NCBI GenBank assembly: GCA_964396715.1
Contig: CAYNFQ010000002.1
Coordinates: forward strand, 2,234-66,233
Length of the DNA stretch: 64,000 bases
Direction: 5' to 3'
Origin: an uncultured Gammaproteobacteria bacterium
GTDB lineage: Bacteria > Patescibacteriota > Microgenomatia > Daviesbacterales > UBA10151
The notes beneath the pieces were generated by a model. It had not been told where the DNA came from and made no database searches. It worked only from the letters and a program-made list of their open reading frames with translations. The stretch's first letter is position 1, and each line of letters begins with the position of its first letter. The position numbers and the translations under genes are program-made. Positions 20,661-44,107 of this stretch are shown in pieces.

Positions 20661-20865
20661 AACTATACGCTAAACGCTACTCTCTATACGCTTCGTTATA
20701 CAATGTGAAAAAAATAATGGCAAGCAGCACAAAGGGGATCATTATGGGACAAATATGGTTAAATGACAAAATCCAAATGCCAAATTACAAATGAAATCTT
20801 AATTTCAAATTTTAAATTTTAGTCATTTGATATTGGAAATTTGAAATTCTTATGTTATTCTTAAT

Positions 20866-21053
20866 TTGTGGTGCACTAGTCCGATGTCATATCGGACCAA
20901 GGTGCAAAAAGGGAATCCGGTTAAAATCCGGAGCTGTGCCGCAACTGTGATTAGTTAGAGAATAGTAAATAGCGTACAGCGTTTAGTTATAAACAACTAT
21001 ACGCTAAACGCTTCTCTCTATACCCTAACTTTAAGTCAGGAGACCGACCACAA
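20866..21053 (+). ncRNA. cobalamin (B12) riboswitch
   Basis: Core AAGGGAATCCGGTTAAAATCCGGAGCTGTGCCGCAACTGTGA. B12-box-like AGTCAGGAGACCGACC. P1 candidates TTGTGGT/ACCACAA. Lies in the 5' leader of 21078..21986. Confidence 0.6.
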
Positions 21054-21077
21054 TTTAGATCCCGTAGCAGGAAAAAT

Positions 21078-25272: not shown

Positions 25273-28200
25273 ATGGCAGAAAGATTAAGCATGGCAGAAG
25301 CAACATCCGGCCCAGGGCCAGAAGCTACACCTCCTGTGGGTGAGGGTCAAGCTGTCCCTCAATCATCAGGTGAATTAAGTCCTCAAAGACCCTGGCATAT
25401 CTCAAAAGAGTTTGATCCTAAAAGGACAGATTATACTTCAAGGGAAGAAGGGAACTGGAATATTTTTGTTGACCCTAAAACAAACAAAGAAGTAGCAAGG
25501 GCAATAAAAATGTCAGGAGGGGCAGATAAAGAAGATGGTGAATACTATGATGGTTCGCAAGAAAAACCAAAAGAATGGTGGCCTTTCACAGAGGATGAAT
25601 GGAAAAATCTTGACATTAAGGATAGGATAGTTGAGGCTGCAGTTTTGGCAATGCGGCATTATTATGACATGGATAATGTAGATAGAGCAGCTAAAGAAAA
25701 AGAATTTTCCATGGCCTATCAAGATTTTTCAGAATACGCTTTGGGTAAAAAACTTTATGACGGAAAAGATACCCGGGTTATTGCACTAGAGTTAGAACTG
25801 GTGAGCTTTGATAAAACAGAAATAGAAAAATATAAAGCAGATCCCGAAAAACAAGGACAGATTGAAGAAGCTCTAAATAACCTGGATGCTCTTGAACATG
25901 AGCAAGCCGGTATTCAAAATGCCTGGAAGGATTACGGCATTACAGATCAAAATAAGAATGATGATCAGTTACGCCCCCCGCATGTTGCACAAGATGAATG
26001 GAAGAAGTATTTGGAAGGAAAGGATGAGATTAAGACAAGATTAGAAGCAGCAAAACAGGCACTTGTAGCTTTAACCAGCCAGGAATTTTTCAATAAAAGA
26101 GAAAAAATCAAAATAGAAGTTGGAGATAAAGTCAAAGAATTAAAAGAAGAAATGGAGAAAAAAGAAAAGGAAGCAAAAAAAGAAGGTGTCCGGGTTGATG
26201 CAGAACAATGGGAGATAGATGCATATAAATTGGAGAAAGAATTGGAAAGAAGCTTATTACAGGGGACAGAAGTCTCTTCGGATCCAGATAAATCGGATGC
26301 TGATGTACCAGTTGAAGAAATACTTAGGTTTATAAAAGAAGAAGGAGAAAAGCCTGTTGCCGAACAATATACAACTGGTTTGGAACGGGCAAAAAAAGTT
26401 CTGGAATGGAATTTTCATGAGGCAAGAAAGCTTGGCATTCTGGAAGATTTGGAAGAAAGGTTTGAGGAAAGATATAAGGAACTGGCAACAGCCGTATTTT
26501 CCAAAAGCAGGACTGATCAGGGTGATACGGAGATTGAAACAAGAAGAGGTCCTCGTAATCTGACCATTGCCGAGATAAAAGAAACATTAGCCAGAGAAGC
26601 AGATGAGCGTAATCCGAATTCGCTCTCAAATACGGCAGAATCAGATACTTTCTGGAAATATCTTGTTAGAGACGGTCTTGTACCCGGAGACAGAGTAAAT
26701 CATTTTAAGGGCATCAGAAAAGCCTTTGTTGACGGGACATATGATCAAATATATGATTCTTTGTCTAACTTATATAATCGCTATAGAGCGGATGAGCTAA
26801 GAGGAAAATTGCAGCAGCAGTTAGACCGGGATGTAATAACTCAACAGCAATATGACAGAAGAATCAATGAAATAAACAACCCAAGAAATATACAAAGGAT
26901 ATCCGGAGAATGGGATGTCCGGAAATATGAAAGAGATATAATGGCCGGTCTGGATAATGAAGAGAGGGCAGAAGCAGGAAGGTTATTTTATATAGACAGG
27001 TATTACCTTACTTTAACAGGCACAACAGAAGCGCAGATTGAACAGGGTGTAAATAATTATCTGACAAGCATTTTGGAAGGAGCGCATGTTTATGATGTTC
27101 AAACAATAATGCAGAAAATGCAATATTTATCTCAGGCTATCATGTCAAAAAAAGATGTTCTTATGCAGTCCGGTATGTCAGCAACTGATGCCCAGGCAGC
27201 CTTAACCAGAATCAATATACTCGCAGAAAACAGGGGAGAATTCTATGTTATGAATTTTTCCGCGCAGAATCTTTTGATGGATGAATACTTTATTCCTTTA
27301 TATGATAAATGGGGGGGAGTGAAAGGGATTGAAAAACTGAAAGAGAGTTTGGATATGAATGATGGTTTAATTGCACCGTGTATGCTTTTGTTTTTAGATA
27401 AAAAGAACCGTTTATTATTTCAACCGGCCGGATTTAAAGGGCAGGGCATGAAAAATATTTGGGCCCAGAGAACCCTGCGGGATAAAATTAAAGGGCAGAT
27501 AGCAGAAGAGCTGGTAAATTTTCAGGCTAAAAAAGCCAATTCTACGGAATTGATGGAACAAGCCACATGGCAGGATTTCTTAAGAATGAAGTTTGAAAAA
27601 AGGTGGGATAAAAAAGATGAACAAGATAATAAAATATTTTTTAAACCAAAAGAGGAAACAGATGCTGCTAAAAAAGCATATCAGGCTGAATATATGCGGG
27701 TTAAAACGGCAGCAAAGCCTGAAGATTTGGAAAGTCTAAAAAGGTTAAGGGAGGAGTACACAAAACAAAAGAATAGGTACGATAGATTGTTGGATCGGGC
27801 CAAAAGCGCTGTTGAGACTACTTGGCAGGTGTTCAATATTTTTGGAGAATCAGCCCGTCTTGGTGCCCCTTCAATAATCATGCGTAACGGTGACCATATC
27901 AGCATTGAGGATGCAACTTATTTCTATAAATTCGTTCTATTGGATGCAATGAAGAAAAGCGGAGATACCCCGGCAATGATGAGGTGGAGAGCCTATCAAT
28001 GGGTTAAGAACCACAGGCAAAGCGAAAAAAATCCAGTTATAAAAGACGGTGTGACTACTTATGAATTAGTTGCAGGACTTGAAGATACAGGGATAACAAA
28101 AGGGGAATACGATGAATTTTTGAAAGCAGTTAAGGAGTTGAGGCTAAACGGTTATAAAGCAGCATTTAGGGAATACAGTTTTGAAGAAATTATCAGCAGA

Positions 28201-29448
28201 AATGATGTCAGACCTGTTAGGAATAATTTTATCAGTAACTATAAATCATCCAGAGAGATATTTGCTAATCCAACAGCCATGAGAGAAGCCAAAAAAGGCA
28301 GACAGCCTTTCATAAAGAATATTCTGGAAAGGTTAGACCGTTCCGGCAGGGGTCAATTTACGGCCCTGGATAGGGCAAAGATAGATGGGAAGCCTTTAGA
28401 TGGGAAGCCTTTAGATGGGAAGCCTTTAGATAAAGTACCGGACGAAAGATTAAAAGAGATTTTTGAAGATGCAATCACGGATTCTTTTGTATTCCATATT
28501 ACTGCCAGGCAATTAGCTCTCTGGGAGGCAACCTTGGAATCTTCTGTGGATGCTCAAGATAATATTGTTTACACAGATAAATTTTCCACTGGCCGGATTT
28601 ACTATGGTAGTCAGGATATCCCCTGGGGAGTTAAGAGACTGCAATATCTGCCGGAATACTGGATGACTAATAAAAGGGAAAGAATAGGCAGGGCATGGAA
28701 ACTTTTGCCATTTGTCCCTCTTTTGAAATCCGGTCTTGCCCAGGAATGTGACGCAGAAAATCTGCCGGATCTGATTCTTAATGTTAATAAAGAACATATT
28801 GATGAGCCGGGACTTAAACAAATAGCAGCAGGTTATAAAGATGCGCAGGGTTGGAGACAGCGGGGGGAGACATCAGTGGATGAACAAAGAGGGGAAACAA
28901 ATTGGGCCTGGTGGGATAAGCTGACAGTAGATGCAGCTCAGATTCTTAAAACTTTACCACAATTAGACTTTCCTCCACAATCTAAAAATGATGCTACAAA
29001 ATTAGGCATATTTGATTATATTATTGATGTACCTAACCCAGAAGAATTTATGAAGAATCATCCAATCCCGTTTGCTTCTAGAAAGGTGCTTGTTGATACA
29101 GCTAGGGAAATACTTAAAAGAGAAGCACCATTAAATGTTTTCCTGGAGGCTCAACTGGGTTATAACCGGAGCGCAGGAGGTTCCGGAATAGGCCTTGAAA
29201 TGGGTGAGAGATGGCATTACAGGATATTAAACTGGTGGTTATCAGAAGTACCAGGTGATATAGATAATAAAAGAGGCACGGAAGGAGGATTAGAAGTTAA
29301 CAGTGATGCTGCAATATTCCTAAAGTTTATTACTATCAAAAATAGCTGGTCAGCAGGTGTATCTATTTTAGACGAGGCATGGAGGCAGGCGCGGGGTACT
29401 CGTGATGCCGGTGCTTCTGATAAATTGCCGCAGGAAATTATTACTTAA
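25273..29448 (+). CDS. giant hypothetical protein (1391 aa), K/E-rich, predicted alpha-helical/coiled-coil, no signal peptide
   Basis: Uninterrupted 4.2-kb ORF with AGGGAAAAATATG RBS. Contains a (DGKPL)x3 15-bp tandem repeat at 28384-28428. No catalytic motif recognised. Confidence 0.6.
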   Translation: MAERLSMAEATSGPGPEATPPVGEGQAVPQSSGELSPQRPWHISKEFDPKRTDYTSREEGNWNIFVDPKTNKEVARAIKMSGGADKEDGEYYDGSQEKPKEWWPFTEDEWKNLDIKDRIVEAAVLAMRHYYDMDNVDRAAKEKEFSMAYQDFSEYALGKKLYDGKDTRVIALELELVSFDKTEIEKYKADPEKQGQIEEALNNLDALEHEQAGIQNAWKDYGITDQNKNDDQLRPPHVAQDEWKKYLEGKDEIKTRLEAAKQALVALTSQEFFNKREKIKIEVGDKVKELKEEMEKKEKEAKKEGVRVDAEQWEIDAYKLEKELERSLLQGTEVSSDPDKSDADVPVEEILRFIKEEGEKPVAEQYTTGLERAKKVLEWNFHEARKLGILEDLEERFEERYKELATAVFSKSRTDQGDTEIETRRGPRNLTIAEIKETLAREADERNPNSLSNTAESDTFWKYLVRDGLVPGDRVNHFKGIRKAFVDGTYDQIYDSLSNLYNRYRADELRGKLQQQLDRDVITQQQYDRRINEINNPRNIQRISGEWDVRKYERDIMAGLDNEERAEAGRLFYIDRYYLTLTGTTEAQIEQGVNNYLTSILEGAHVYDVQTIMQKMQYLSQAIMSKKDVLMQSGMSATDAQAALTRINILAENRGEFYVMNFSAQNLLMDEYFIPLYDKWGGVKGIEKLKESLDMNDGLIAPCMLLFLDKKNRLLFQPAGFKGQGMKNIWAQRTLRDKIKGQIAEELVNFQAKKANSTELMEQATWQDFLRMKFEKRWDKKDEQDNKIFFKPKEETDAAKKAYQAEYMRVKTAAKPEDLESLKRLREEYTKQKNRYDRLLDRAKSAVETTWQVFNIFGESARLGAPSIIMRNGDHISIEDATYFYKFVLLDAMKKSGDTPAMMRWRAYQWVKNHRQSEKNPVIKDGVTTYELVAGLEDTGITKGEYDEFLKAVKELRLNGYKAAFREYSFEEIISRNDVRPVRNNFISNYKSSREIFANPTAMREAKKGRQPFIKNILERLDRSGRGQFTALDRAKIDGKPLDGKPLDGKPLDKVPDERLKEIFEDAITDSFVFHITARQLALWEATLESSVDAQDNIVYTDKFSTGRIYYGSQDIPWGVKRLQYLPEYWMTNKRERIGRAWKLLPFVPLLKSGLAQECDAENLPDLILNVNKEHIDEPGLKQIAAGYKDAQGWRQRGETSVDEQRGETNWAWWDKLTVDAAQILKTLPQLDFPPQSKNDATKLGIFDYIIDVPNPEEFMKNHPIPFASRKVLVDTAREILKREAPLNVFLEAQLGYNRSAGGSGIGLEMGERWHYRILNWWLSEVPGDIDNKRGTEGGLEVNSDAAIFLKFITIKNSWSAGVSILDEAWRQARGTRDAGASDKLPQEIIT
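28384..28428 (+). repeat. 15-bp in-frame tandem repeat x3 (DGKPL) within the 1391-aa ORF
   Basis: GATGGGAAGCCTTTA x3. Confidence 0.85.
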
Positions 29449-31252
29449 TTAATCCTGGTCTTCTTGGCCACGAAAAACCACCTTTCCATCCAACGAAATT
29501 GCCCGCTTTATCAAGTACTTGAGTATGTTGAGGGTTCCAAATAGGTCCTGATGTTTCTCCAAAAAGCGCTTTATTCCATCCGCCTAATTGTCCGCCTACG
29601 GCGCCTCGTCCTTGAGCAAAATATCCCTGACCGCTTCTGATACCTCCGGAAATTTCCTGACCAAGCAACTGTCCTGCCTGGCCCATTTTCCCAATAGCGC
29701 TAACAACGATATCCGGAATTTTAGGTAATGCCACCAATGCCCCGAAAGCCAAAAGAATTTTAATAAACTCCAAATCCATGCCACCCAAAAGAGGAAAGGT
29801 TGTGTTGCCTACAATTTGTATTGGTTCCGCAGCCAAAGCAACAGGCATAAAATTGTTGCCTGCAGGACTTACTGCATCAGTAACAACTTTAAGCGGTCCA
29901 AAATCCTTCCCCAAAATAAATGCTATAAAATAAAAGACAGCCAAGACTGCGGGAAAGATTAAAATATTACCCAGCATATTTAATACCCAGTTAGTGGCAA
30001 TTCCTTGTCTGCCGGGCAGGGAAGCAGCCAGAAATTGAAAGGGAGCGCTGATTGTTAGGAAAATAATGGTCAGATAAGCGGTGATTAAACGCAGGAGCAG
30101 TTTGAGCATAGCGTATATTAGCGCAATCATAGCAATGAAACTTAATATAAATCCTAACCAAAATTGAGTAGTGGCAGCTACGATACCTCCGGCTACTGCG
30201 GTTATTAGCGGACCCAGCCACAGCCCCAAAGGGGGAGGAATAGCCGATGTTAAGGGACTGACAAATTGAGCGGCGATAAAGCCTGTAAAAAGCCTTAGCC
30301 ATCCCTGGACCTCTCCGCTTAGTTTATCAAATATAGCTATCACTGCATTTTCTGCTTTTTCTTGGGTAACTATGCTCACAAATTCACTAAAAATACTTAA
30401 AACACTATCGCCTGATATTTGCTGTACCAAGTTTGTTCTTTGCGGGTCATCTAATTTTCCTTGAGCTGCTGCAAAATAATAGCCGACTGCGTTAGTACCA
30501 ATAAAAGCAGTATCAGAAATAAATCCTGCCAAAAAGTAGGAAAAAGTAATTAAAATTAAACCAATAACTAACCCAGGTAGTGCTGCCTGGGCTGTGATGA
30601 CTGTCTGTGGGTTAATCCTTTGCCGAAACATCACCATCAGCCCGATTATGACAAAAATTATTATCATCACCAGATAAGAAATATTTCTGGAAACCTGCCA
30701 GAGGGATAAAATTGGACTTAAGACACTGGCCCCTGATCCACCTACTTGAGCCCGGGCCTCTTTTACAACTCCCAGGCCTTCTCCCAAAGATGCCAGGTAA
30801 TCTGCTGTTCTGATAGGAGGGTTTGCATAAAGTCCTGCTATAAGGCCTGTGGTGGTCCCTAAAAGCCCTCCTGAAAGATTAGCTGAGGAAAGCACCGGAA
30901 TGGACTGAATTGCTCCCTGGGCATTCTGGGTCAGCTGATAAGTTAGACAGGGTTGGCCGATTACTGATGAACCAATAGAAAGACAGGAAAAGGTATGGAA
31001 TATGTTATGCACCAGAAGGTCTGTGTATAAAGGGGAGGTGGGGGGGATGGTAGGTGGTAGTGAGTAGGTTGTAGGTTGTAGGGAAGAAGGAGAAGGAGTA
31101 GAAGTTTGGGCAAAAACAGGAGTGGTGAATAATGTCAAAATCAAAATGACAAATAACAAATGAATGACAAAGCCAAAATGACAAATAACAAATTTTTTGA
31201 AATTTAGATTTGATTTGACATTTGACATTTGAGCTTTGAGTTTTCCAACCAT
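29441..31252 (-). CDS. VirB6/TrbL-like polytopic membrane protein (putative T4SS channel component) with Gly-rich C-terminus
   Basis: Signal peptide followed by at least six TM helices and large loops; location next to the pilin and VirB4 loci. The first approximately 20 codons are encoded by AAATGTCAAAT-type repeats, so the real start may be internal. Confidence 0.4.
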   Translation of the reverse strand: MVGKLKAQMSNVKSNLNFKKFVICHFGFVIHLLFVILILTLFTTPVFAQTSTPSPSSLQPTTYSLPPTIPPTSPLYTDLLVHNIFHTFSCLSIGSSVIGQPCLTYQLTQNAQGAIQSIPVLSSANLSGGLLGTTTGLIAGLYANPPIRTADYLASLGEGLGVVKEARAQVGGSGASVLSPILSLWQVSRNISYLVMIIIFVIIGLMVMFRQRINPQTVITAQAALPGLVIGLILITFSYFLAGFISDTAFIGTNAVGYYFAAAQGKLDDPQRTNLVQQISGDSVLSIFSEFVSIVTQEKAENAVIAIFDKLSGEVQGWLRLFTGFIAAQFVSPLTSAIPPPLGLWLGPLITAVAGGIVAATTQFWLGFILSFIAMIALIYAMLKLLLRLITAYLTIIFLTISAPFQFLAASLPGRQGIATNWVLNMLGNILIFPAVLAVFYFIAFILGKDFGPLKVVTDAVSPAGNNFMPVALAAEPIQIVGNTTFPLLGGMDLEFIKILLAFGALVALPKIPDIVVSAIGKMGQAGQLLGQEISGGIRSGQGYFAQGRGAVGGQLGGWNKALFGETSGPIWNPQHTQVLDKAGNFVGWKGGFSWPRRPGLIK

Positions 31253-31295
31253 ACTTTAACATTAAAACAAAGTGGCTATCTTTGCAACTCTCTTG

Positions 31296-31676
31296 TTATA
31301 CAAATTCCAAATCTTTAATTCCCTGAAAATCTTTTTTATTTAAAGTGGCAAAAGAGGCTTTGTTAATGATGGCTGTGGCGGCAATAGCCGCATCTGCAAG
31401 ATCTAACCTAGAGATACTGTCTCTGGCAATTTCGCCTGCAAGTTTGGCTACTTCATATGTATAGGATAGAATCTTAAACAAGGAAATTGTATTTATCAGT
31501 TTTTTGTGACGTACTTCATCTTTAATGCTTTTCCCTTCATAAAGTTCTTGGATAGTGATTATAGAAATTGTCAGGTTTTTTTGTGGGTACTTATTGGCAA
31601 GCTTTCTTAAATGTGTTAGTTTATCATCCGGCTGACGTAAATGATCAATAATAATGCTGGTATCTACGATTACCAT
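31296..31676 (-). CDS. vapC: PIN-domain toxin VapC
   Basis: IVDTSIIID...D...ATAI PIN acidic residue pattern; overlaps the upstream antitoxin. Confidence 0.7.
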   Translation of the reverse strand: MVIVDTSIIIDHLRQPDDKLTHLRKLANKYPQKNLTISIITIQELYEGKSIKDEVRHKKLINTISLFKILSYTYEVAKLAGEIARDSISRLDLADAAIAATAIINKASFATLNKKDFQGIKDLEFV

Positions 31677-31975
31677 GCCTTTTTTCTTTCTCTGGATGCT
31701 TTAAGCTCAATTTTCCTTCTTCTTTTTTCTGTTTCAGGCCAGTCATCTCCTGCCCAGGCTCCTTGTGTGCTTTTCAGAATTTCAAGGAAAACTTCTCTCT
31801 TATTGCTTTTTTCTTCCTCAGTCACCACCTCATTTACCGGGTACATATGTATTCCGCCATTGCTGACGATCACATTTAAAAGTTGACCTGCAGAAATATT
31901 TAAATCATCCCTGATTTTTTTAGGAATGACAATCTGACCTTTTATGTTTGGGGTGACTATTGTGCCAATATTCAT
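31670..31975 (-). CDS. vapB: AbrB/MazE/SpoVT-type antitoxin VapB
   Basis: KGQIVIPKKIRDDLNISAGQLL swapped-hairpin motif. Confidence 0.6.
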   Translation of the reverse strand: MNIGTIVTPNIKGQIVIPKKIRDDLNISAGQLLNVIVSNGGIHMYPVNEVVTEEEKSNKREVFLEILKSTQGAWAGDDWPETEKRRRKIELKASRERKKAW

Positions 31976-32082
31976 AAGTCATTATGAATACAAGATTTTC
32001 TTATATTCATACTGGTAATATTTTACTACTTTCGTTAGAAAATAGCAAGCTTTGCTTATTACTTTTACCACAATTTGTCAAC

Positions 32083-32181
32083 CTATTGCGGCAAAATTTT
32101 AATGTTAAAGGTAGTTACATCTATTCCGGTAAAGGCTTTTATAAGTTGTAAAATCAGCCAGGCCAGGGCCATAAAGACCAT
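32083..32181 (-). pseudogene. C-terminal remnant of a VirB2/TrbC-like pilin paralog
   Basis: Encodes MVFMALAWLILQLIKAFTGIDVTTFNIKILPQ*. About 94% DNA identity over 68 bp with the 3' end of pilin gene 33970..34290. Confidence 0.5.
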
Positions 32182-32187
32182 AGGCGG

Positions 32188-33960
32188 TTAGCGGCGGAAT
32201 GGGTTGGGGGCGTTTCGACTTTGCTCAGATCCTATAAACTCACAGCCCTGTATGGGAAAAGGTTTTGTAGTTTTGAGTGCACCATCTGTAAGCGTCACTA
32301 CCGCTTCGGTAAAGTCTAGTACCTCTCCTTCTACGAGATTGTAGCCCCCACGGCCTACTCCGATATCCCCCCTACCCTGTGATCCTAGAGACTGAATGAA
32401 AACCCATGTGGCTAGTGGAGGGAAAATGCTCTCTCGTGGCTCTCTCGTACGTCCTACGATACCTTTTCCTGGAACGAGTTCGCCGGTGTATGACCATGAT
32501 ATTCTTGATGATCTTTCGTCTCCACGATCGACTCTTTTGTATATTCCATTAAACTCTGCAGTGAACCTTAGGTAGTCGCCTCCCGTATATTGCGTTGATA
32601 CCTCACATATCATTATGCCTTTCTCGAACGACGCTTTGCCAGTGGTAGCAATCATGATAGTTTTCCACCAGATTTCTGGATTTTTAATACTCTGTCCGTC
32701 GACTGTGTATATCTCAACACCGGTTTTTTGGACAAAGTCGATATTTACTTCCCCTGTTTGATACCGGCCTCGGAAAATGGTATCTGGTGGGAATCGCCGT
32801 AGGTTTTCAGCTGATGAGCGGGTGCACCATTCTGTATTGTCCGCTGTCGGGTCGCAGTACTTACTAAGGCCAATCTTGACTACTGTATCTTCAAAAGGTG
32901 AAACTGTAAATTCCTCAGGACGATATTGGAAGGTAGGTTGAGGTTTTAGGCGCACTGCTACCTTGTGGGGTTGTGGAGTGTTATTTTCTAATGTAATAGG
33001 CCACCAATATTCTGCCTGATCCTCTCCCCGTATACCTACCTGTTTAATAGCTACTGCAAGTTTGGCTTCTACCCCCAAAACAGCCCCCTTATCCAAATCA
33101 TTCCTTATTCCCCCACAAGCCTTTATAGAATCTTCATTAGGCCCGCATCTTCTTTTATCAGCAGTTCTGACTAAATTATCAGGGCCGATTAATGTACCAT
33201 CTTTATTTGTTGGGCTGGCTTTGATCTGTCCCTGGGGAAACTTTATTCCATCAGCAGGCAGAAATTTCCCATCCTTTTTGGCATACCAATGAAGATGAAT
33301 ACCAGAGGTATCTCCTCCAGATGGTTTTTCACAAGAAGGATTGCCCAACCTTTCCCCCTGTTTCACTTCTTGACCAACGTTTACTAACATGTTGGCAAGA
33401 TGCATATAACCGGTTCTTAAGCCTTGGCCGTGATCTATCTCCACAAGGCTGTGATTTTTATCAGTGGGATCTTTTTCATTTCCCACAACAGCTATCTTTC
33501 CAGAGGCTGATGCTTCCACAAACCTATTTTCCACAGGTTTACCACCAGGACAAGCCACCACCTCTGGTTGAGCAAAATCCAAAGCAGCGCGTACCCCGTT
33601 GGTTGAACCATCCGAGTGAGGACCAGCACTTAAATACCACAAGCCACTGAAAGGATAATCAAAACTGATTTCGCTTCTTGATTCAGCTGACTGGGCAGAT
33701 ACATTTGGCTGTGAGGGGGGCTTGGCTTCAGGGCCACAGGCAGCAGCTAGCAGACTCAAAGATGTTACACCTACAGCGTAAAGTGTTTTGACAGGTCTTG
33801 GTAAGATTTTTAACCAAGCTCTATGTCCTGGTTTAGGATCAGCAAGAGGGAGATCAACAATTCTTGCAACAGAGGCTATTCTTGCTTGTTCAAGTAACAT
33901 TTTTCTTGCTTGACTACCTTGTTCAAGTCTTTGGAAGATATTAGGCCCAAATTCTTTCAT
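32188..33960 (-). CDS. secreted/lipoprotein M23 (LytM) family metallopeptidase with large C-terminal domain of unknown function
   Basis: Lipobox-like LLAAAC; M23 motifs HGQGLRTGYMHL...GIHLHW. Confidence 0.7.
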   Translation of the reverse strand: MKEFGPNIFQRLEQGSQARKMLLEQARIASVARIVDLPLADPKPGHRAWLKILPRPVKTLYAVGVTSLSLLAAACGPEAKPPSQPNVSAQSAESRSEISFDYPFSGLWYLSAGPHSDGSTNGVRAALDFAQPEVVACPGGKPVENRFVEASASGKIAVVGNEKDPTDKNHSLVEIDHGQGLRTGYMHLANMLVNVGQEVKQGERLGNPSCEKPSGGDTSGIHLHWYAKKDGKFLPADGIKFPQGQIKASPTNKDGTLIGPDNLVRTADKRRCGPNEDSIKACGGIRNDLDKGAVLGVEAKLAVAIKQVGIRGEDQAEYWWPITLENNTPQPHKVAVRLKPQPTFQYRPEEFTVSPFEDTVVKIGLSKYCDPTADNTEWCTRSSAENLRRFPPDTIFRGRYQTGEVNIDFVQKTGVEIYTVDGQSIKNPEIWWKTIMIATTGKASFEKGIMICEVSTQYTGGDYLRFTAEFNGIYKRVDRGDERSSRISWSYTGELVPGKGIVGRTREPRESIFPPLATWVFIQSLGSQGRGDIGVGRGGYNLVEGEVLDFTEAVVTLTDGALKTTKPFPIQGCEFIGSEQSRNAPNPFRR

Positions 33961-33969
33961 AGTTAATCT

Positions 33970-34290
33970 TTAAGGTTGGCATATATTTTTTCCATTAGGA
34001 AGGACACACAAAGTTTTTATATCAAAAAAAGTTACATCTATTCCGGTAAAGGCTTTTATAAGTTGCAGTATCAGCCAGGCCAGGGCCATAAAAACCATTC
34101 CCAGAAGGGCCCAGGTGACTGTCTGGTGGGCTGCTGATACTGCCTTGGGTTCCCCTCCGGACATTAAATACTTAAAACCCGCCCAAATAAGCATAACCAA
34201 AAGGACAATAAATCCTAAGCCAACTATTACAGAAACCACGCTACTAAACACTTGTTCGATTTGTTCTAAGCCGGCTGGAGGTGGACCCAT
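33970..34290 (-). CDS. VirB2/TrbC-like T4SS pilin paralog 1
   Basis: Hydrophobic N-terminal helix, W.GFKYLMSGGEPKA...ALLGMVFMALAWLI two-helix pilin signature shared by five neighbouring genes. Confidence 0.55.
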   Translation of the reverse strand: MGPPPAGLEQIEQVFSSVVSVIVGLGFIVLLVMLIWAGFKYLMSGGEPKAVSAAHQTVTWALLGMVFMALAWLILQLIKAFTGIDVTFFDIKTLCVLPNGKNICQP

Positions 34291-34332
34291 ACTTTTAACT
34301 TAGCATGAAGAAGGACTAAAGATCAAATAGTG

Positions 34333-34746
34333 CTAGGGGGTCGGGGTCTTGAATTCCGCTGGGGTCGGGATAGGTAACGTGGTGAGGTCGGTAAATCCTA
34401 AAATTTGTGCTCCCACTCTCGCCAAAGCAAAGGCCACAGCCAAAACAGCCAGGCCGATTAAGGCGTTAATAATCCTGTTTCGCGCCTTTCCAACAGCTTC
34501 CTTATCCCCGCCTGAGACAATCCACTCAAACGCCCCCCAAATCAGCATCACCAAAACTACCAGCAGGGCAACAGCAAAAGAAATAGAAACAATGTTGGTC
34601 ACAAAGTCGCCAATCTGTTTATAGCCTTGGGGAGGAGGACTGATGGTGATGTCTGCTGCTGCCAGAGCTTGAACAGGCTGAAGTAAAGAGGCAATTGATG
34701 CACCGATAAAGGTAATTTTTTTCATTACTGACTTAACTATATCCAA
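34333..34746 (-). CDS. VirB2/TrbC-like T4SS pilin paralog 2
   Basis: Signal peptide with AAADI cleavage region; WGAFEWIVSGGDKEAVGKARNRIINALIGLAVLAVAFAL. Confidence 0.55.
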   Translation of the reverse strand: MDIVKSVMKKITFIGASIASLLQPVQALAAADITISPPPQGYKQIGDFVTNIVSISFAVALLVVLVMLIWGAFEWIVSGGDKEAVGKARNRIINALIGLAVLAVAFALARVGAQILGFTDLTTLPIPTPAEFKTPTP

Positions 34747-34779
34747 ATAATAACTGATTTGTCAAGAGGGGCAAAAATG

Positions 34780-35115
34780 TTACTGCTGCTGGTCGACAAA
34801 AAATGTGAATCCAGTAAATTGTCCCAAAACTTGGATTACCGCAAAAGCCACGGCAAAAAGCAGTATGCCGATGATGGCATTAATTATTTTTCTTTTGGCA
34901 GACTCCAGCTTTTCCTTATCCCCCTCAGATGTCAGCCAGTCCCATGCCCCCCAAAGCAGCATCAAGATTAAAACCACAGCTGCCAGAGAATAAATTAAGG
35001 CAATCAGGTTGTTTAAAAATTTAGAAATCCCCTCAGCCCCAAAACCAAATCTTTGAATTTCGGGAGGAGGACTAATAGTGCCAAAAGTATCTTTTATATC
35101 AGCAATAAGTTTCAT
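34780..35115 (-). CDS. VirB2/TrbC-like T4SS pilin paralog 3
   Basis: WGAWDWLTSEGDKEKLESAKRKIINAIIGILLFAVAFAV. Confidence 0.55.
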   Translation of the reverse strand: MKLIADIKDTFGTISPPPEIQRFGFGAEGISKFLNNLIALIYSLAAVVLILMLLWGAWDWLTSEGDKEKLESAKRKIINAIIGILLFAVAFAVIQVLGQFTGFTFFVDQQQ

Positions 35116-35546
35116 CCGATTATTTTTAAATCACTAATATTAAGTAGTCTTGCCAATAAAAACTGTAATATTAAAAATGCAAACATCAGTATTATAAACC
35201 CTACTATAGCATGGGTGATCATCTGTCTTGCCGAATCCATATCTTCTTTATTCCCTCCGGCCTTTAAAAACCTGAATGCTCCCAGCAGGAAATAAAGTAT
35301 TACCAAAAATGCGGCTACTTGAAATAAAGGCTTGACTAGCCTGGAGGTTCCACAACCTAAAGAGGTTATATCTCCAAAACCAAATTTAGAACCAATATCA
35401 ACCCCCTTTGCAGTTGTAGAGGCTGTATTTACCTCACTCTTGCATGGATCTTGTTCTTGGTCCGCGGCAAAGACAGGAGTAACAAGCAGTAGATAACTTG
35501 TAAGCAAAACTGTAAACTGTAAACTGTAAACTGTAACCTTTCTCAA
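35112..35546 (-). CDS. VirB2/TrbC-like T4SS pilin paralog 4
   Basis: Same signature (GAFRFLKAGGNKEDMDSARQMITHAIVGFIILMFAF). Probable TTG start at 35546 after a GGAGG RBS. The ORF track's ATG at 35639 would overlap the upstream gene by 97 bp. The signal peptide contains an (AAACTGT)x4 tandem repeat. Confidence 0.45.
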   Translation of the reverse strand: MRKVTVYSLQFTVLLTSYLLLVTPVFAADQEQDPCKSEVNTASTTAKGVDIGSKFGFGDITSLGCGTSRLVKPLFQVAAFLVILYFLLGAFRFLKAGGNKEDMDSARQMITHAIVGFIILMFAFLILQFLLARLLNISDLKIIG

Positions 35547-35875
35547 AATGGCGAGCCTCCTTTTGGTGGTAATATTTGAGCAGCAAAGGTGGCAATCAGG
35601 TAGGCTGTCAGTATCACCATCAGTCCGATTATGGCCCATTTAATTCTTTCTCTGGCTTTGGCCAGCTCTTCTTTTTTGCCTGAGGCTAAAATGTACTGGA
35701 ACGCCCCCCAAAGCAGCCAGTAAAAAGCCATAAAGATGGCAATATAAAAAGCAATATTTAAAAGACCGGATAAAACATCAGCCAGTTTAGCATTTTCGAA
35801 TTTAAAATTAAGGGCTTTTAAGCCGGAATCTTTTAGTAAATCGTTTAACATAAGTTTAGTAATGCCAAAGCTCAA
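35543..35875 (-). CDS. VirB2/TrbC-like T4SS pilin paralog 5
   Basis: WGAFQYILASGKKEELAKARERIKWAIIGLMVILTAYLI. Confidence 0.55.
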   Translation of the reverse strand: MSFGITKLMLNDLLKDSGLKALNFKFENAKLADVLSGLLNIAFYIAIFMAFYWLLWGAFQYILASGKKEELAKARERIKWAIIGLMVILTAYLIATFAAQILPPKGGSPF

Positions 35876-35977
35876 AGTCCAAATGTCAAATGAATTTCAA
35901 AGCCTAAATGACAAATTTTTTGTCTTTGGCATTTAGATTTGATTTGTCATTTGTAATTTGGATTTTGACATTTTACT

Positions 35978-36376
35978 TTACTTTCTGATAATTGCCGAAA
36001 AAATTAAAGTCAATTCCTGAGCTTCTTGCCAATGCTTCCTTGCTTCCGGTGCAAGGTTTGGTACAGCTTTTGCCACCATCCTGAGCCAATGTTTGGTTTC
36101 CTTGGCTTCTTTTTTACAAATGCCTATTTTATGTTTGAAGTCTTTTTTGCTTTCCGCCCCGTCTGCTTCGCAATAGTTAGCTCCTATACTGGTGCCTGAT
36201 CGGACTAGTTGGCTGATAACAGGCAGTGTTACGGGATTTTGCGGTATTTTTTTAGCAAACTCCAGAGTCTTTTCCCCAAACTTGGCAGTCCTTTCCTCAA
36301 GATCATATTTCTTTTTAGTATTTGGATTTTGACCTTCATTTGTAATTTGAAATTTGTAATTTGACATTGTCATCAT
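35978..36376 (-). CDS. four-helix-bundle protein of the 23S rRNA intervening-sequence family, copy 2, embedded in the pilin operon
   Basis: GTSIGANYCEADGAESKKDFKHKIGICKKEAKETKHWL motif. ATGA overlap with the upstream pilin-adhesin gene. N-terminus is encoded by AAATGTCAAAT repeats. Confidence 0.7.
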   Translation of the reverse strand: MMTMSNYKFQITNEGQNPNTKKKYDLEERTAKFGEKTLEFAKKIPQNPVTLPVISQLVRSGTSIGANYCEADGAESKKDFKHKIGICKKEAKETKHWLRMVAKAVPNLAPEARKHWQEAQELTLIFSAIIRK

Positions 36377-37875
36377 GGTTCTCCAAACTGTTCCCCCAGT
36401 CCCAGTATACCAACTCCAATAATCTGAAGCAGCAAAACTGCAAAAATAACAAACAACAGTCCAATTATGGCAGATTGGAACCTGTCTCTTCCTGTCTGTA
36501 AAGTTTCCGGGTTTCCGGCAGAAGTGACCATCTGGAATGCTCCCAAAAGCATCATTAAAAAAGCCAACCCTCCGGAAATTCCCAGAATAAACTTTAAAAA
36601 GTCCTTAATGAATCCCACCGGTGAGGTATGTATACAGCCAATGGCTGTTTGGATGCCTGGATTTTTTGGATCTGCTGTATCACATGGCGTCCCTCCTGCT
36701 GTGGTTGGCGGACCTTGTGGTGTGGTTGTGGTTGGGGTTTGTTGCCCTGATCCTGGTTGAGTTATAACTCCTGTTGGAGCTGGTTGATCAGACACAACTG
36801 TTAGTTGAGCTCCTCCCTGAATGCTTGAGTTACTTAAACTTGTGACAATGATAGAATAAGAACCACCGCTTAACCCGTCTCCGAGTTGTAAATTATAAGT
36901 ACATCCTGGCCCTGAACAACTAAAAGTATTAGCCAGTAGCTTGCTGCTTATTTCAACTTTATAGGTTTCATTTGTTGAGCCGTCAACTAGCTTGATCTGT
37001 ATTGTTCTATTTTTAGAAGCACTTGCTTGTATAGTAGAAGGGTTAATTTCTACTTTTAAAGCAGTTGGAACAGGACCTTTGACTGTGAATGTTTTTTGAA
37101 TTTTATCTGATATTTCTTTTGGTATTGAGAGCGAAGTTACACCAACAACGTATGATTGATTTTCAATAAGGTTACTGCCACTAAGCTCGAATGTAACTAA
37201 TTTAGTTCCGGATACGTAGTCTAAATTTTCATCACCCTTTGTCTCACCTTTTAAAATAGTGCAAGTTTCTTTGTTAGGATCACAAAACAACTTAATATAC
37301 ACAATTGCAGCAGACCCGCCAGCCATTGTTATTCTAATTTCATAATTTGAAGCCAGAGGTTTTGTGAGTGCTACTACTACAATTACTTTTTCTGCTTTAG
37401 TAATTTCTGTTGAGGATAGTTGTATTGTTGGTATACCGATTAGTTTCTCCCAAGCGTAAGAAACCCAACCCGTTTGACCTCCTGCCCTCAGGTCCCAAGT
37501 GTCTTTGTACCCATCTCTTAAAAAAACCCTTGCGGATGTATCAGGTTGTCCATTAATCCACCTGACTACGTTCTTGATCAGAATGTTAGTATTGCCTGTT
37601 GTGCTAGCGTCAAGTTCCCTGACTCCTATACAAGGTCCGTAAGTAAATGGTCCTCTTCTTGGACAATCTCCGTCATGGGGAGTTTCAAATGTATATTTTT
37701 TATCAGGATTTTTTGTTTCAACAGTAATTTGCATATCACTATTGCTCCCGAAACTTGCATTCTCCAAGAGCTCTACTGGTCCGAACAGAATTTTGTCAGC
37801 AGCCATGACAGTGGTAGGTCTAAAAGAAACGAGAGTTAAAAAAATAGCAATTGCAGAAATAAGTATTTTGGACAT
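36373..37875 (-). CDS. large secreted protein with N-terminal Ig-like/adhesin-like region, Thr/Pro-rich linker and C-terminal VirB2/TrbC-like pilin domain
   Basis: Signal peptide; beta-rich 350 aa; PTTTTPQGPPTTAGG linker; C-terminal LGAFQMVTSAGNPETLQTGRDRFQSAIIGLLFVIFAVLLL matches the neighbouring pilins. Confidence 0.5.
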   Translation of the reverse strand: MSKILISAIAIFLTLVSFRPTTVMAADKILFGPVELLENASFGSNSDMQITVETKNPDKKYTFETPHDGDCPRRGPFTYGPCIGVRELDASTTGNTNILIKNVVRWINGQPDTSARVFLRDGYKDTWDLRAGGQTGWVSYAWEKLIGIPTIQLSSTEITKAEKVIVVVALTKPLASNYEIRITMAGGSAAIVYIKLFCDPNKETCTILKGETKGDENLDYVSGTKLVTFELSGSNLIENQSYVVGVTSLSIPKEISDKIQKTFTVKGPVPTALKVEINPSTIQASASKNRTIQIKLVDGSTNETYKVEISSKLLANTFSCSGPGCTYNLQLGDGLSGGSYSIIVTSLSNSSIQGGAQLTVVSDQPAPTGVITQPGSGQQTPTTTTPQGPPTTAGGTPCDTADPKNPGIQTAIGCIHTSPVGFIKDFLKFILGISGGLAFLMMLLGAFQMVTSAGNPETLQTGRDRFQSAIIGLLFVIFAVLLLQIIGVGILGLGEQFGEP

Positions 37876-37952
37876 TAGTTTCAGCTTACCACAATTATGT
37901 AACTAATTGTGGCTTAGCACATTTTGGCTGGAAATGGTAAAATTTTAAGATT

Positions 37953-39659
37953 ATGCCCCGTTTTCTTGCTGTATTTTTACTTGTTACTTTTGCCTTGTTA
38001 CTTGTTACTTTTCCTGTCCATGCTGATGAAATAGAGGATTTACAAAAGCAAATAAATTCTCTGAATGAGGAATATCAAAGAGTAGAGAAAGCCAAAGCTC
38101 CTTTGGAAGGACAGCTGGATTCCTTAAAAAGGCAGCTGGCCCAAATTCAAGCCACCTTAGACAATTTATCAGCCAATATAACAATAAAACAGCAGGAGCT
38201 GGATTTAAGAGAAGATAAATTGGCTTTCCAGCAGGCCCTTTTGGAGGAAAGAGTCAGGGCATATTATATCCGCTCATACCTGACAGATCCCCTTTTGGTG
38301 ATTCTTTCCTCCTTTAAGGCCGGTGATTTATTCCGCGAGCTATCCTACAGACAAACCGTGACCAGGGAAGACAAACAGGTGATCACCTCCATTACCAACC
38401 AGGTCTTAGATCTTTTAACTGAAAAAGAAAAACTGGAAAAAGATAAAGCCAGGCTCGCTCTTTTACAAGCTGATGTTGATAAAAATGCCAAGTTTTTGGG
38501 AGGGGAAATCACCAAGGCAAAGGTGTATCAGCAAGAATTATCCACAAAAATTGCTCAACTGACTGCCCGCCAGCAGGCAATCATTGCCCAAAGGCAGGCT
38601 GCTTTGGGTCTGCCTACCTCATTAGGTGCAGGTCCACTTTTCTGCACTGATGATAGAAAACTTGACCCGGGCTTTAGACCGGCCTTTGCCTTTTTCACTT
38701 ACGGTATTCCTCACAGAGTGGGTATGAACCAATACGGAGCATACGGCAGATCCCAGGCAGGCCAAAATCATGAAGATATCTTAAGAGCCTACTTTCAGGA
38801 TTTTTCTTTTGAGCAAAGACCTAACATCAATATTTCTGTTTCCGGCTACGGTTCAATGCCTTTGGAAACATATCTTTTGGGGATCTATGAAATGCCGGAC
38901 TCCTGGCCGGCTGAATCCCTCAAAGCTCAAGCTATTGCTGCCCGCTCTTATGCCTTATCCTATACCAACAACGGTTCCAAGGAAATTTGTACCACTCAAC
39001 AGTGTCAGGTTTACAAGGGTGGCAATAAAGGAGGCAATTGGGAACAGGCAGTAAAAGCAACTGAAGGCAAAACTATGATCTCAGGTGGCTCGCCTGTTAC
39101 TGCCTGGTATTCTTCAACAGACGGCGGGTACACATACACAGCCTCGGATATTGGCTGGGGAGGACGCTCTTTTACCAAAAGGTTAAGGGATACAAGCGGG
39201 GATATAGGTAGTTTTGGGGATCTTTCTTCCAAAGCTTATGACCGTGATTCCCCTTGTTTTTATGCGGCCCAGGGCTTTAGGCCTGAGTATGCAAAGTCTG
39301 CCTGGCTAAAATCAGAAGAGGTAGCGGATATTGCCAATGTGGTAATGCTTGTCAAAAGAGATAGCGGGGTTTCTGCGCATATTTACCAGACAGATAAACC
39401 TAATCCCGAGGGAGGGGAAACATGGAATGCGGATAGGGTCAAGGAGGAGTTAAGAAATAAAGGGGGCACTCCCTTTAACAGCGTATCAGGGGTATCTGTG
39501 GGGGTGGATTTCGGATCCGGCATGGTCACATCTGTCACAGTTTCAGGGGACAGGGGCTCTGAAACATTTAACGGGTCAGAATTTAAAAACTTCTTTAATC
39601 TTCGTGCCCCTGCCAATATCCAAATAGTAGGACCGCTCTTCAACGTTGAGACAAAATAA
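37953..39659 (+). CDS. SpoIID/LytB-domain peptidoglycan-remodelling protein with N-terminal coiled-coil
   Basis: Signal peptide, coiled-coil (approximately 35-200), then the SpoIID/LytB motif region YLLGIYEMPDSWPAESLKAQAIAARSYAL...QQCQVYKG. Confidence 0.65.
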   Translation: MPRFLAVFLLVTFALLLVTFPVHADEIEDLQKQINSLNEEYQRVEKAKAPLEGQLDSLKRQLAQIQATLDNLSANITIKQQELDLREDKLAFQQALLEERVRAYYIRSYLTDPLLVILSSFKAGDLFRELSYRQTVTREDKQVITSITNQVLDLLTEKEKLEKDKARLALLQADVDKNAKFLGGEITKAKVYQQELSTKIAQLTARQQAIIAQRQAALGLPTSLGAGPLFCTDDRKLDPGFRPAFAFFTYGIPHRVGMNQYGAYGRSQAGQNHEDILRAYFQDFSFEQRPNINISVSGYGSMPLETYLLGIYEMPDSWPAESLKAQAIAARSYALSYTNNGSKEICTTQQCQVYKGGNKGGNWEQAVKATEGKTMISGGSPVTAWYSSTDGGYTYTASDIGWGGRSFTKRLRDTSGDIGSFGDLSSKAYDRDSPCFYAAQGFRPEYAKSAWLKSEEVADIANVVMLVKRDSGVSAHIYQTDKPNPEGGETWNADRVKEELRNKGGTPFNSVSGVSVGVDFGSGMVTSVTVSGDRGSETFNGSEFKNFFNLRAPANIQIVGPLFNVETK

Positions 39660-42447: not shown

Positions 42448-42885
42448 ATGAAGATAATTAACAAAAAAGCCCTTCATAATTATCATATCCTGGAATCTCT
42501 GGAAGCAGGTATAGTTCTATCCGGAGGAGAAGTGAAATCTATCAGGGGTGGAAGGTTGGATTTAGGGGAATCTCATGTCAGAGTTTTAGGGTCTGAAGCT
42601 TTTTTAATAAATGCCCACATTCCTCCATATCAGGGATCATATGAAGGTTACGATCCGCAAAGATCAAGAAAACTGCTTTTGCATAAAACTCAAATAAACT
42701 CACTTATTGGTAAGGTATCAAAAGGGGGAATAACTTTAGTTCCAGTCTCAATTTATGAAAAAAACAACAGGTTTAAGGTGGAAATAGGTTTAGCAAAGAG
42801 CAAAAAAGAGTTTGACAAGCGCCGGGGGATTAAAGAAAAAGATCAGATAAGACGTGTGGAGCAGGAGCTTCGCGGTAAAGAATAA
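42448..42885 (+). CDS. smpB: SsrA-binding protein SmpB
   Basis: Characteristic SmpB sequence (NKKALHNY...GGEVKSIR...LLLHKTQI). Confidence 0.9.
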   Translation: MKIINKKALHNYHILESLEAGIVLSGGEVKSIRGGRLDLGESHVRVLGSEAFLINAHIPPYQGSYEGYDPQRSRKLLLHKTQINSLIGKVSKGGITLVPVSIYEKNNRFKVEIGLAKSKKEFDKRRGIKEKDQIRRVEQELRGKE

Positions 42886-43669: not shown

Positions 43670-44107
43670 TAATGGGTGGAGATGGGCGGTTTGAACCGCC
43701 GTCCAAAATTGTGACTTTTAAAACTTCTACAAGCTTATCTTTACTATATTTTTGAGTGTTAATTTGTAACCGTAAAGAAGGAAGATTAACACTTAATCCA
43801 AATTTCTTGGTTCTGATTATGGATTAGATATCAGAAGCTGCATCCTGACTGGGTACATTACTTTAGGTTCTAGCCAGAAAAAGAATTCTAAAATAGATGC
43901 TTTAAGTTCTAGCGTATGCAACAGGAGTAAATACTCCAGTTACACCTGCAAAAAGTTTTGCAACTTCTTGCTCTGCCATTGCTTTGGCATCACGGACAAG
44001 TTTATTGCCGTTTGTTGTTTGAAACAGTATTTTACGTTTAATGTTTCCTTAACAGCTTGCAGTTTTTAAAGAGCAATCCTGTCGAGACTATACATCCCCA
44101 GGTCATT
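43670..44107 (-). ncRNA. ssrA: tmRNA (SsrA)
   Basis: 5' end GGGGAUGUAUAGUCUCGACAGGAU matches the tmRNA consensus GGGGcUGauUcuGGAUUCGACGGGAU. 3' tRNA-like end GGACGGCGGUUCAAACCGCCCAUCUCCACC(CA). Adjacent to smpB. Confidence 0.7.

Follow-up and report, generated by a model that had tools for sequence, protein, structure and literature searches.

Six VirB2-type pilin genes in a conserved order, with an ectodomain-bearing first member, in a Daviesbacteria type IV secretion locus

The window analysed in this work is a stretch of 64,000 nucleotides from an uncultured member of the Daviesbacterales (Patescibacteriota, Microgenomatia; assembly GCA_964396715.1, contig CAYNFQ010000002.1, positions 2,234 to 66,233), and it contains a tandem array of six genes for pilins of a type IV secretion system (T4SS), which are designated here P1 to P6 in their coding order. 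The same six genes are found in the same order in most of the related loci, each of them has its own orthologs at the corresponding position in other species, and the diversity between genomes is located in the large N-terminal ectodomain of P1. The locus is probably the pilin operon of a monoderm-type (MPF-FATA-like) T4SS, in which six ancient and non-interchangeable pilins of the VirB2 fold would build a heteromeric pilus or conduit, with P1 displaying its ectodomain. T4SS pilin arrays of the Patescibacteria are already known and no new kind of system is described here; what is new is that, in a kit of six genes with fixed positions, one VirB2-type pilin bears an ectodomain.

The six pilin genes and their conserved order

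In the preliminary description of this region, which was made from the sequence alone, a tandem array of six VirB2/TrbC-like pilin paralogs was reported at 33970-37875, and the present analysis confirms it: six open reading frames (ORFs) are found here on the minus strand, each of which ends in a two-helix module. The first of these, P1 (36373-37875), is a long pilin of 500 aa, and it is followed by five short pilins, viz. P2 (35543-35875; 110 aa; PF18895 43.7 bits), P3 (35112-35546; 144 aa; 31.7 bits), P4 (34780-35115; 111 aa; 43.2 bits), P5 (34333-34746; 137 aa, or 130 aa from the ATG at 34725; 34.7 bits) and P6 (33970-34290; 106 aa; 43.5 bits), the last of which has a Cys-x10-Cys tail at its C-terminus. 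P1 and P6 are identical to the NCBI proteins HYZ05_01040 and HYZ05_01010 from a metagenome-assembled genome of Candidatus Daviesbacteria, a group that is uncultivated. When read by eye, Sec-type signal peptides ending in AxA/A (the slash marks the end of the signal peptide) are present only in P1, P3 (...LLLVTPVFA/AD) and P5 (MKKITFIGASIASLLQPVQALA/AAD), and P2, P4 and P6 begin directly at the mature N-terminus; no hydrophobic signal sequence is visible among the N-termini of the position-2 orthologs. Translation of P3 most likely starts at a TTG (35546) with GGAGG in front of it, and the longest possible ORF for this gene (175 aa from 35639) is probably not the one used. Several neighbouring genes overlap: the P2 stop overlaps the P3 start, the P3 stop overlaps the P4 ATG by 4 nt (35112-35115), and the P1 stop overlaps by 4 nt (36373-36376) the start of a gene of the 23S_rRNA_IVP type, which interrupts the array. 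Spacers are found before P5 (33 nt) and P6 (42 nt), and upstream of P5 there is a promoter-like site, TTGACA-18-TATAGT (34765-34736), which is a sigma-70-like match at 11 of 12 positions.

All six pilins pass the gathering cut-off of PF18895 (T4SS_pilin; 26.6 bits), with scores of 31.7-43.7 bits (E 1.6e-7 to 2.8e-11), and a hidden Markov model (HMM) made from the six modules matches exactly six of the 647 window ORFs (stop-to-stop, at least 40 aa), with no seventh pilin copy found among these ORFs by this profile. The family match is not due to chance. P6 is the most TrbC/VirB2-like of the six, and in an alignment of P6 sequences (orthologs 64-85% identical) PF18895 is matched by 45/45 members and the TrbC/VirB2 family PF04956 (cut-off 27.9 bits) by 17/45 at E<=0.01 (best E 4.6e-8). 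The latter results indicate a distant superfamily relationship of these sequences to PF04956, and not membership of that Pfam family. The earlier claim that these proteins are VirB2/TrbC-type pilin paralogs is thus borne out by the PF18895 matches of all six, by the P6 orthogroup reaching PF04956 and by the T4SS neighbourhood. The two-helix topology, on which that claim had also been staked, is predicted as well, as AlphaFold2 models P6 with helices at residues 6-43 and 48-82 and hydropathy gives two hydrophobic segments in each pilin. The sequence signature proposed for the two-helix modules is approximately right, but it was over-stated, since only G46, A61, G64 and A71 (P6 numbering) are invariant, the signature Trp is absent in 2/6 modules and the first Gly of the "G-G" in 3/6, and the identity of the other paralogs to P6 is 18-33%.

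If the array represented a rapidly diversifying library of pilin variants, as was proposed earlier, then the number and content of its genes should vary among related genomes. A scan of one genome per species yielded 29 Daviesbacteria/Microgenomates loci (L001-L029), and 21 of them contain the same six pilins in the same order, i.e. one long pilin (269-515 aa) and then five short ones. Where fewer pilin genes are present, the locus is in most cases cut by a contig end, and the atypical six-gene loci are L024, which has an extra long pilin, and L029, which begins inside P1. In all-against-all comparisons, modules at the same position share 57-70% identity on average and modules at different positions 25-44%, and the best match in another genome is from the same position in 128/144 cases. 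The module at position 1 is the most conserved of the six (~70% identity within its orthogroup), and the values for positions 2, 3, 4 and 5 are 57%, 60%, 58.5% and 61%. Every position keeps its own signature and its typical signal-peptide status; in other species a signal peptide and a Cys-rich N-terminal extension are found at position 4, and the orthologs of P6 occur both with and without a signal peptide, the Cys pair in their tail being conserved. The flanks are also conserved, with smpB and the genes for an NHL-repeat protein, a bPH protein and SpoIID running divergently on one side, and a 603-aa membrane protein downstream of P6 on the other. Due to their positional orthology and constant order, the six genes are, on the evidence of these comparisons, ancient and individually conserved paralogs, which is the reverse of a library that diversifies rapidly and varies in copy number. 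The comparison of copy number across related genomes that had been called for earlier has thus been carried out, and it shows that number and order are constant among species-level relatives. Further, no DNA repeats suited to gene conversion are present: in a search for homology blocks between the pilin genes, only weak repeats of 22-35 nt were found besides a single remnant of 90 nt, which is described below. Beside smpB in the conserved flank lies a tmRNA gene (RF00023, 100.1 bits), and this housekeeping pair (43674-44099, minus strand, and 42448-42885, plus strand) marks the flank of the pilin operon.

Natural fusions between pilins provide evidence of another kind. An exhaustive profile search retrieved 87,278 representative proteins at E<=0.001 (15,404 at E<=1e-10), and many of the top matches contain several pilin modules per chain, from 2 up to 17, in continuous ORFs with short linkers between the hairpins. 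As judged by the six positional HMMs, P0258 and P0259 each join a P2 to a P3 cleanly and in the order of the array (98-122 bits against the HMMs of position 2 and then position 3), and P0245 and P0249 have a P1-type module and then two further modules. In L025, a two-module pilin ORF of 223 aa directly follows P1. Fusions of this kind are topologically reasonable if both termini of the pilins are outside, and they argue that different pilins stand side by side in one assembly; the P2-P3 fusions point to co-assembly. The longer proteins of this kind, which are found outside the window, are poly-pilins (P0242-P0249 and others) with a signal peptide followed by 3-17 tandem PF18895-like hairpins, examples being P0242, with six modules in 552 aa, and P0246, with 17 matched stretches in 1775 aa; no description of poly-pilins turned up in our literature searches, which were aimed elsewhere.

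The ectodomain of the first pilin

The P1 protein consists of a signal peptide (residues 1-25; 37801-37875), three beta-sandwich domains (residues ~26-362; 36790-37800), a disordered linker rich in Thr, Pro, Gly and Gln (residues 363-396; 36688-36789), and a Cys398-Cys414 neck with the two-helix pilin module (residues 397-500; 36376-36687), all encoded on the minus strand. In the AlphaFold2 model of this protein, for which 54 homologs were used (mean pLDDT 75.3), a signal helix precedes three domains rich in beta structure, the stretch at 362-396 forms a disordered linker, and two long helices span 419-451 and 456-490. Two of the beta domains (~150-265 and 270-361) are beta-sandwiches at high confidence and the domain at ~46-145 is of low confidence, and the neck that follows the linker is a small beta-hairpin closed by Cys398 and Cys414, both of which are invariant. 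The model confirms the earlier description of this 500-aa protein as a beta-rich domain and a Thr/Pro linker placed in front of a pilin module, and its ectodomain of ~340 residues is predicted to be formed by tandem immunoglobulin (Ig)/MG-like beta-sandwiches.

The two parts of P1 differ greatly in their conservation. The C-terminal modules of 31 long pilins align in 465/465 pairs with a mean identity of 67%, whereas the N-terminal ectodomains of the same 31 proteins align in 35/465 pairs, are unrelated in 430/465, and fall into 13 unrelated groups. When 53 database homologs are compared with P1, the helices are 77-79% identical and the loop 100%, whereas the three ectodomain segments are only 8-15% identical; P0009, for example, has more than 90% of its helix residues in common with the window P1, yet its ectodomain is unrelated, and the same is seen in other proteins. 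The boundary between the two parts is also evident in the DNA. The window and L004 are 84.5% identical over the P1 module and the IVP gene and ~70% identical in the flanks, whereas no similarity between them is detectable across the P1 ectodomain; the similarity breaks at 36648, at about residue 409 in the neck, and the same break is seen in comparison with L005. As the module is conserved across orthologs whose ectodomains are unrelated, P1 is a mosaic in which a highly conserved assembly module carries a replaceable distal domain. Diversification is therefore real in this locus, but it sits in the P1 ectodomain and between genomes, and the variable part is thereby narrowed to this one region of the protein, whose junction with the module is a sharp and conserved breakpoint. 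When 5.8 billion proteins were searched with the ectodomain alone, 3 clusters were recovered, and in each of these the ectodomain is fused to PF18895; no donor family was identified by this word-index search of limited sensitivity. A putative role of P1 as an adhesin, which the preliminary description had suggested, is plausible.

Ectodomain fusions are not confined to position 1. In L014, a 323-aa protein with a predicted extra N-terminal domain is present at position 2 (10284-11255 of that locus), the extra long pilin of L024 (7243-8157; 304 aa) has a P6-like module, and the position-6 protein of L019 (12291-12887; 198 aa) bears a Cys-rich extension.

The presence of bAvd-like/IVP genes in this region suggested a diversity-generating retroelement (DGR) as a possible source of the ectodomain variability. 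This possibility was rejected, as neither a reverse transcriptase nor template/variable repeats were found: no RVT_1-type reverse transcriptase occurs among the scanned window ORFs, only an RNase H / RVT_3 protein (4272-4682), and no repeat resembling a template/variable pair was found in 31000-38500. The IVP/bAvd-like genes are the sole link to a DGR, and a weak one.

Relation to known T4SS pilins and proposed assembly

Tandem arrays of VirB2-like pilins in Patescibacteria have been published (PMC10633639, PMC12102498), and the array described here is thus of a kind already known. Quinonero-Coronel et al. 2025 (PMC12102498) report 441 VirB2 arrays of 2-11 genes with ~25% mean identity, which are most abundant in Microgenomatia and Saccharimonadia. 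An array is defined there as 2-11 PF18895/VirB2 genes in tandem or split by one non-pilin gene, with a maximum identity of 54%, and such arrays are chromosomal, near an MPF-FATA-like virB4 and dnaA, and without a relaxase. The window array fits this definition, having six genes, one interruption (the IVP gene), paralog identity in the range given above, and virB4 and dnaA nearby. In Southlakia epibionticum, the predicted pilin subunits of the T4SS cluster are called essential (Wang et al. 2023, PMC10633639); the supplement of that paper gives PF18895 matches in SEML1_0014-0019, and SEML1_0017-0019 were scored essential. The Patescibacteria T4SS is described as essential for the epibiotic lifestyle in the one species tested (PMC10633639, PMC11665869), and six pilins are also counted in PMC12857230. 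The window therefore resembles the published arrays in its family (PF18895), in six tandem genes (as in Southlakia), in a paralog identity of about 25%, in a single non-pilin interruption, which the definition allows, and in lying beside an MPF-FATA-like virB4/trsD/prgI cluster near dnaA. It differs from Southlakia in that its first member is a 500-aa protein with a ~340-residue Ig/MG-like ectodomain, whereas in the supplement rows consulted the Southlakia PF18895 matches end by residue 180, which implies short proteins. Term searches of PMC10633639 and PMC12102498 found no mention of a long pilin fusion, and neither fixed positional orthology nor ectodomain mosaicism turned up in them. In the published reading, these arrays represent sequence variability, possibly serving host adaptation; what is observed here is instead a fixed six-part kit with one-to-one orthologs.

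The classical pilins of this superfamily, viz. VirB2 of the Agrobacterium T-pilus and TrbC of RP4, are similar in being small proteins with a leader peptide, two hydrophobic helices and a short basic loop, and in being encoded with VirB4, VirB3 and VirB6. Both VirB2 and TrbC are cyclised. They differ from the window pilins in that there is usually one pilin gene per system, no ectodomain fusions are present, and the hosts are diderm, whereas the host of the window is monoderm. Minor or tip pilins of type IV pili that bear large extra domains (initiator pilins of the TcpB/CofB type) and the T4SS adhesins VirB5/PrgB follow the same logic as is proposed for P1, in which a conserved assembly module that fits into the filament or caps it is combined with a distal contact domain. 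However, their folds and families are unrelated to P1, whose extra domains are N-terminal to a VirB2-type hairpin. The pilin-like conjugal transfer protein of the Mbov_0395 family (NF045849), from an integrative and conjugative element (ICE) of Mycoplasma, is alike in being a two-helix protein of a monoderm MPF-FATA-type element; it is matched by P6 (32.5 bits, E 5e-8) and P5 (25.4 bits, E 8e-6) against a cut-off of 40, and the relationship would be distant at best. A PrgB-like adhesin was not detected in Patescibacteria in the survey of PMC12102498. The T4SS of Anaplasma and Bartonella, an analogy which the same paper invokes, also have several divergent virB2 genes in tandem; however, those copies are read as antigenic variation or varied interaction with host surfaces, whereas the six window pilins are conserved one-to-one across species, which argues for a division of labour.

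In the assembly that we propose, each pilin would insert into the membrane as a helical hairpin with both of its termini outside and, on the inside, a short basic loop rich in Gly; this orientation is suggested by the extracytoplasmic Cys pairs, by the Lys/Arg residues in or just after the loop, and by the existence of orthologs with and without signal peptides. P1, P3 and P5 would enter the membrane by means of cleavable Sec signal peptides, and P2, P4 and P6 without them. In diderm T4SS, pilins are extracted and polymerised by VirB4 on VirB6, and by analogy the VirB4 ATPase of the window would extract and polymerise the pilins on a VirB6-like platform, for which the 603-aa protein is a candidate. 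A single heteromeric pilus, or a conduit spanning the wall, would result, with each of the six pilins at a distinct position and with a defined order or stoichiometry of subunits. P1, which is encoded first, would carry its three Ig/MG-like beta-sandwiches on the flexible Thr/Pro linker N-terminal to helix 1, and these would consequently sit on the exterior of the filament. As a minor or tip subunit, P1 would touch the host cell, and the wholesale replacement of its ectodomain between lineages would tune host recognition, making P1 a candidate determinant of host specificity. We also put forward, tentatively and with less confidence than the assembly as such, that the six pilins are obligate partners in one ordered filament or conduit and that P1 is a tip or initiator pilin of VirB2 fold with an exchangeable Ig-like ectodomain for host recognition. 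If this is correct, then P1 would be a new solution that is equivalent in function to VirB5, PrgB or the tip pilins of type IV pili, and the replacement of its ectodomain at the fixed breakpoint in the neck would set the host range across Daviesbacteria.

A number of observations weigh against the assembly proposed here. No pilus has been observed for a Patescibacteria T4SS, and reviews give it as a mere possibility (PMC12857230). Among the window proteins, P6 alone matches PF04956, and its score (22.3 bits, E 1.6e-4) lies under the cut-off. A profile of the P6 orthogroup and the five other window modules gave no match to a solved VirB2, TraA or TrbC structure among PDB sequences; the matches obtained with the P6-alignment profile are to designed helical proteins and light-harvesting chains (E>0.04), and the link to the classical pilins is at the level of sequence. 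The confidence of AlphaFold2 is low over P1 residues 20-145, and the predicted fold of the P1 ectodomain is generic, with no recognisable binding site. In the Southlakia supplement rows consulted, the latest PF18895 match ends at residue 180 and no long fusion is present, which suggests that a P1-type subunit is not universal. Lastly, poly-pilins of 6-17 modules are hard to square with a classical filament of extracted monomers, and a membrane-embedded assembly fits them at least as well.

The main rival to a pilus or conduit of extracted subunits is that the pilins remain in the membrane, where their hairpins would contribute a ring or a short stalk, hetero-oligomeric in composition, to the T4SS channel, or would simply serve as two-transmembrane-helix anchors, with P1 as a surface protein tethered beside the machine by its C-terminal hairpin. 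We consider this to be rather unlikely, but several facts speak for it. Monoderm MPF-FATA systems are normally without pili (PMC12102498), a filament cannot be diagnosed from a hairpin fold by itself, and chains of 2-17 tandem modules, which would be polytopic membrane proteins, do exist; the sub-threshold similarity to Mbov_0395 (25-32 bits against 40) also hints that VirB2-like proteins are present in pilus-less monoderm ICEs. However, the homology of these proteins to true pilins through PF18895, and partially through PF04956, speaks against such a reading, and with both termini predicted outside, tandem fusions with external linkers are still compatible with a filament. Further, P1, with its long flexible linker and its stalk of several domains, looks made for projecting off a surface.

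A second alternative, that the six genes are a library of alternative pilins for antigenic, phase or host-range variation, with the 90-nt remnant as a silent cassette, is largely refuted and we regard it as very improbable. The paralogs are certainly very divergent, a truncated copy is present, lineage-specific departures occur occasionally (the extra long pilin of L024 and the 323-aa position-2 protein of L014), and PMC12102498 speculates that variability might aid adaptation to different host strains. Against this reading, the number and order of the genes are constant, the positional orthogroups are strong, and the P2-P3 covalent fusions follow the array order. The six genes are all intact, several of them overlapping end to start; the paralogs lack long shared DNA repeats except for the remnant, which flanks an inserted gene; and the pilins are reported as essential in Southlakia (PMC10633639). 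It is scarcely credible that these are unrelated small hydrophobic proteins (holin-like proteins or transporter fragments) which match PF18895 by transmembrane composition only: weak sub-threshold matches to unrelated transmembrane families (MatE, DctQ, Yip1) are seen beside PF18895, and some of the 87,278 representatives may be compositional, but 6/6 exceed the curated cut-off, the match extends over both helices and the conserved loop motif, the synteny with the genes for VirB4, PrgI and TrsD is conserved, and in the essential cluster of Southlakia proteins of this family carry the annotation T4SS pilin.

The T4SS neighbourhood, an insertion downstream of P6, and other features

The T4SS core genes are found 14-20 kb from the pilin array, all on the minus strand. 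They encode a cell-wall hydrolase with M23 and SLT domains (13836-16670), a VirB4 ATPase (16686-18449; NCBIfam CD1110 family, 385 bits against a cut-off of 325), a TrsD-like/VirB4 N-domain protein (18446-19195; TrsD E 7.8e-7) and a PrgI/VirB3-like protein (19192-20214; PrgI PF12666); a TraG P-loop was also matched in this set. The genes dnaA (9840-11159) and dnaN (11851-12969), as well as rnpA and yidC, are also present in the window, and no relaxase or coupling-protein domain was found among the window ORFs scanned, which are a part of all ORFs. This is the origin-proximal, monoderm-type (MPF-FATA-like) T4SS region as it is described for Patescibacteria in PMC12102498.

The 603-aa protein (29441-31252, minus strand) is a polytopic membrane protein with at least six hydrophobic segments and without a match in Pfam or NCBIfam. 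Its homologs are present in 24 loci with 47-65% identity, in most of them following P6 after a few tens to a few hundred bases, and in L025 the T4SS core genes lie within ~3 kb of it. Based on synteny and hydropathy only, it is a candidate VirB6/PrgH-like platform. As VirB6 is scarce in Microgenomatia by an HMM survey (PMC12102498), this protein offers a candidate for a highly divergent VirB6 that such surveys miss. Convergent with its gene is an ORF of 1391 aa (25273-29448, plus strand), also without a Pfam or NCBIfam match, which is conserved in the same location at 24-44% identity in L003, L005, L007, L010, L018 and L021, and which may be a further surface or channel protein associated with the T4SS.

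Between P6 and the gene for the 603-aa protein, a 590-aa M23 peptidase (32188-33960, minus strand; PF01551 49.7 bits) is encoded in the window. A gene of this kind is absent at this site in most relatives and present in L005, and it is, on these comparisons, a lineage-specific insertion between P6 and the conserved membrane protein downstream. A MazE/AbrB-type antitoxin (31670-31975; PF04014) and a PIN toxin (31296-31676; PF01850), both on the minus strand, have no homolog in any of the 29 fetched loci and belong to the same insertion. The remnant noted earlier at 32083-32181 (minus strand) lies directly after the M23 stop and is a duplicated 3' end of P6 (its last ~32 codons): positions 32092-32181 are 88% identical over 90 nt to 34009-34098, and the translation is MVFMALAWLILQLIKAFTGIDVTTFNIKILPQ followed by a stop. 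It is thus a real copy derived from P6, but not the silent cassette of a library; it is best read as a by-product, or scar, of the insertion of the M23 and toxin-antitoxin genes. Its origin as a foreign allele acquired by recombination was considered and rejected, as it is 88% identical to the resident P6 and at most 82% identical to the P6 of other species, and it is simpler to assume that part of P6 was duplicated locally in connection with the M23 insertion.

The 23S_rRNA_IVP-type gene within the array (35978-36376, minus strand; PF05635 53.6 bits) encodes a four-helix-bundle protein which, with 95% amino acid identity to its L004 copy, is the best-conserved gene product of the locus. In relatives, copies of this gene are found in the P1/P2 gap (many loci), in the P2/P3 gap (L002, L013) or upstream of P1 (L003, L016, L018, L023), and a second 23S_rRNA_IVP/bAvd-like gene is present in the T4SS region of the window (20271-20660). 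In its distribution it behaves like a mobile or selfish gene, and a role together with P1 is possible. Degenerate TGACAAA/TTTGTCA-like heptamers form tracts of direct and inverted repeats at 31130-31244, 35860-35972 and 36312-36368; these tracts lie on either side of the IVP gene, and they include coding sequence for the N-termini of both the IVP protein and the 603-aa membrane protein.

Adjoining the P1 ATG, within a feature at 37876-37912 (minus strand), is the motif TGTG[CG]TAAGCTGAAAnTA (37876-37895), which is present with base variants in most related loci and looks like an extended -10 box. A box of this kind so near the ATG suggests an mRNA with little or no leader. In the window, the motif is embedded in the palindrome CCACAATTATGTAACTAATTGTGG (37889-37912), and a related palindromic copy occurs at 32068-32091. 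The palindrome CCACAATT-N8-AATTGTGG was rejected as a conserved operator, as its exact form occurs only in the window and L025; the conserved part is the half-site TGTG[CG]TAAGCT beside the start codon. CCCTAAA/CCCTAGA-like tracts are present upstream of P1 in relatives.

Within the T4SS neighbourhood, a cobalamin riboswitch (RF00174, 63.6 bits; 20852-21066, plus strand) is located directly upstream of an ORF of 302 aa (21078-21986), which has no Pfam or NCBIfam match and whose homologs, in the fetched flanks, lie downstream of the VirB6 candidate in L007, L012, L018, L025 and L029. As a guess, this ORF may encode a protein for B12 uptake or binding that is itself under B12 control, in an organism that is probably auxotrophic. 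Lastly, a group I intron (RF00028, 81.9 bits; 59671-59952, plus strand) is present between an ORF of 121 aa (59283-59648) and a gene for a large serine recombinase (60024-61700, minus strand).

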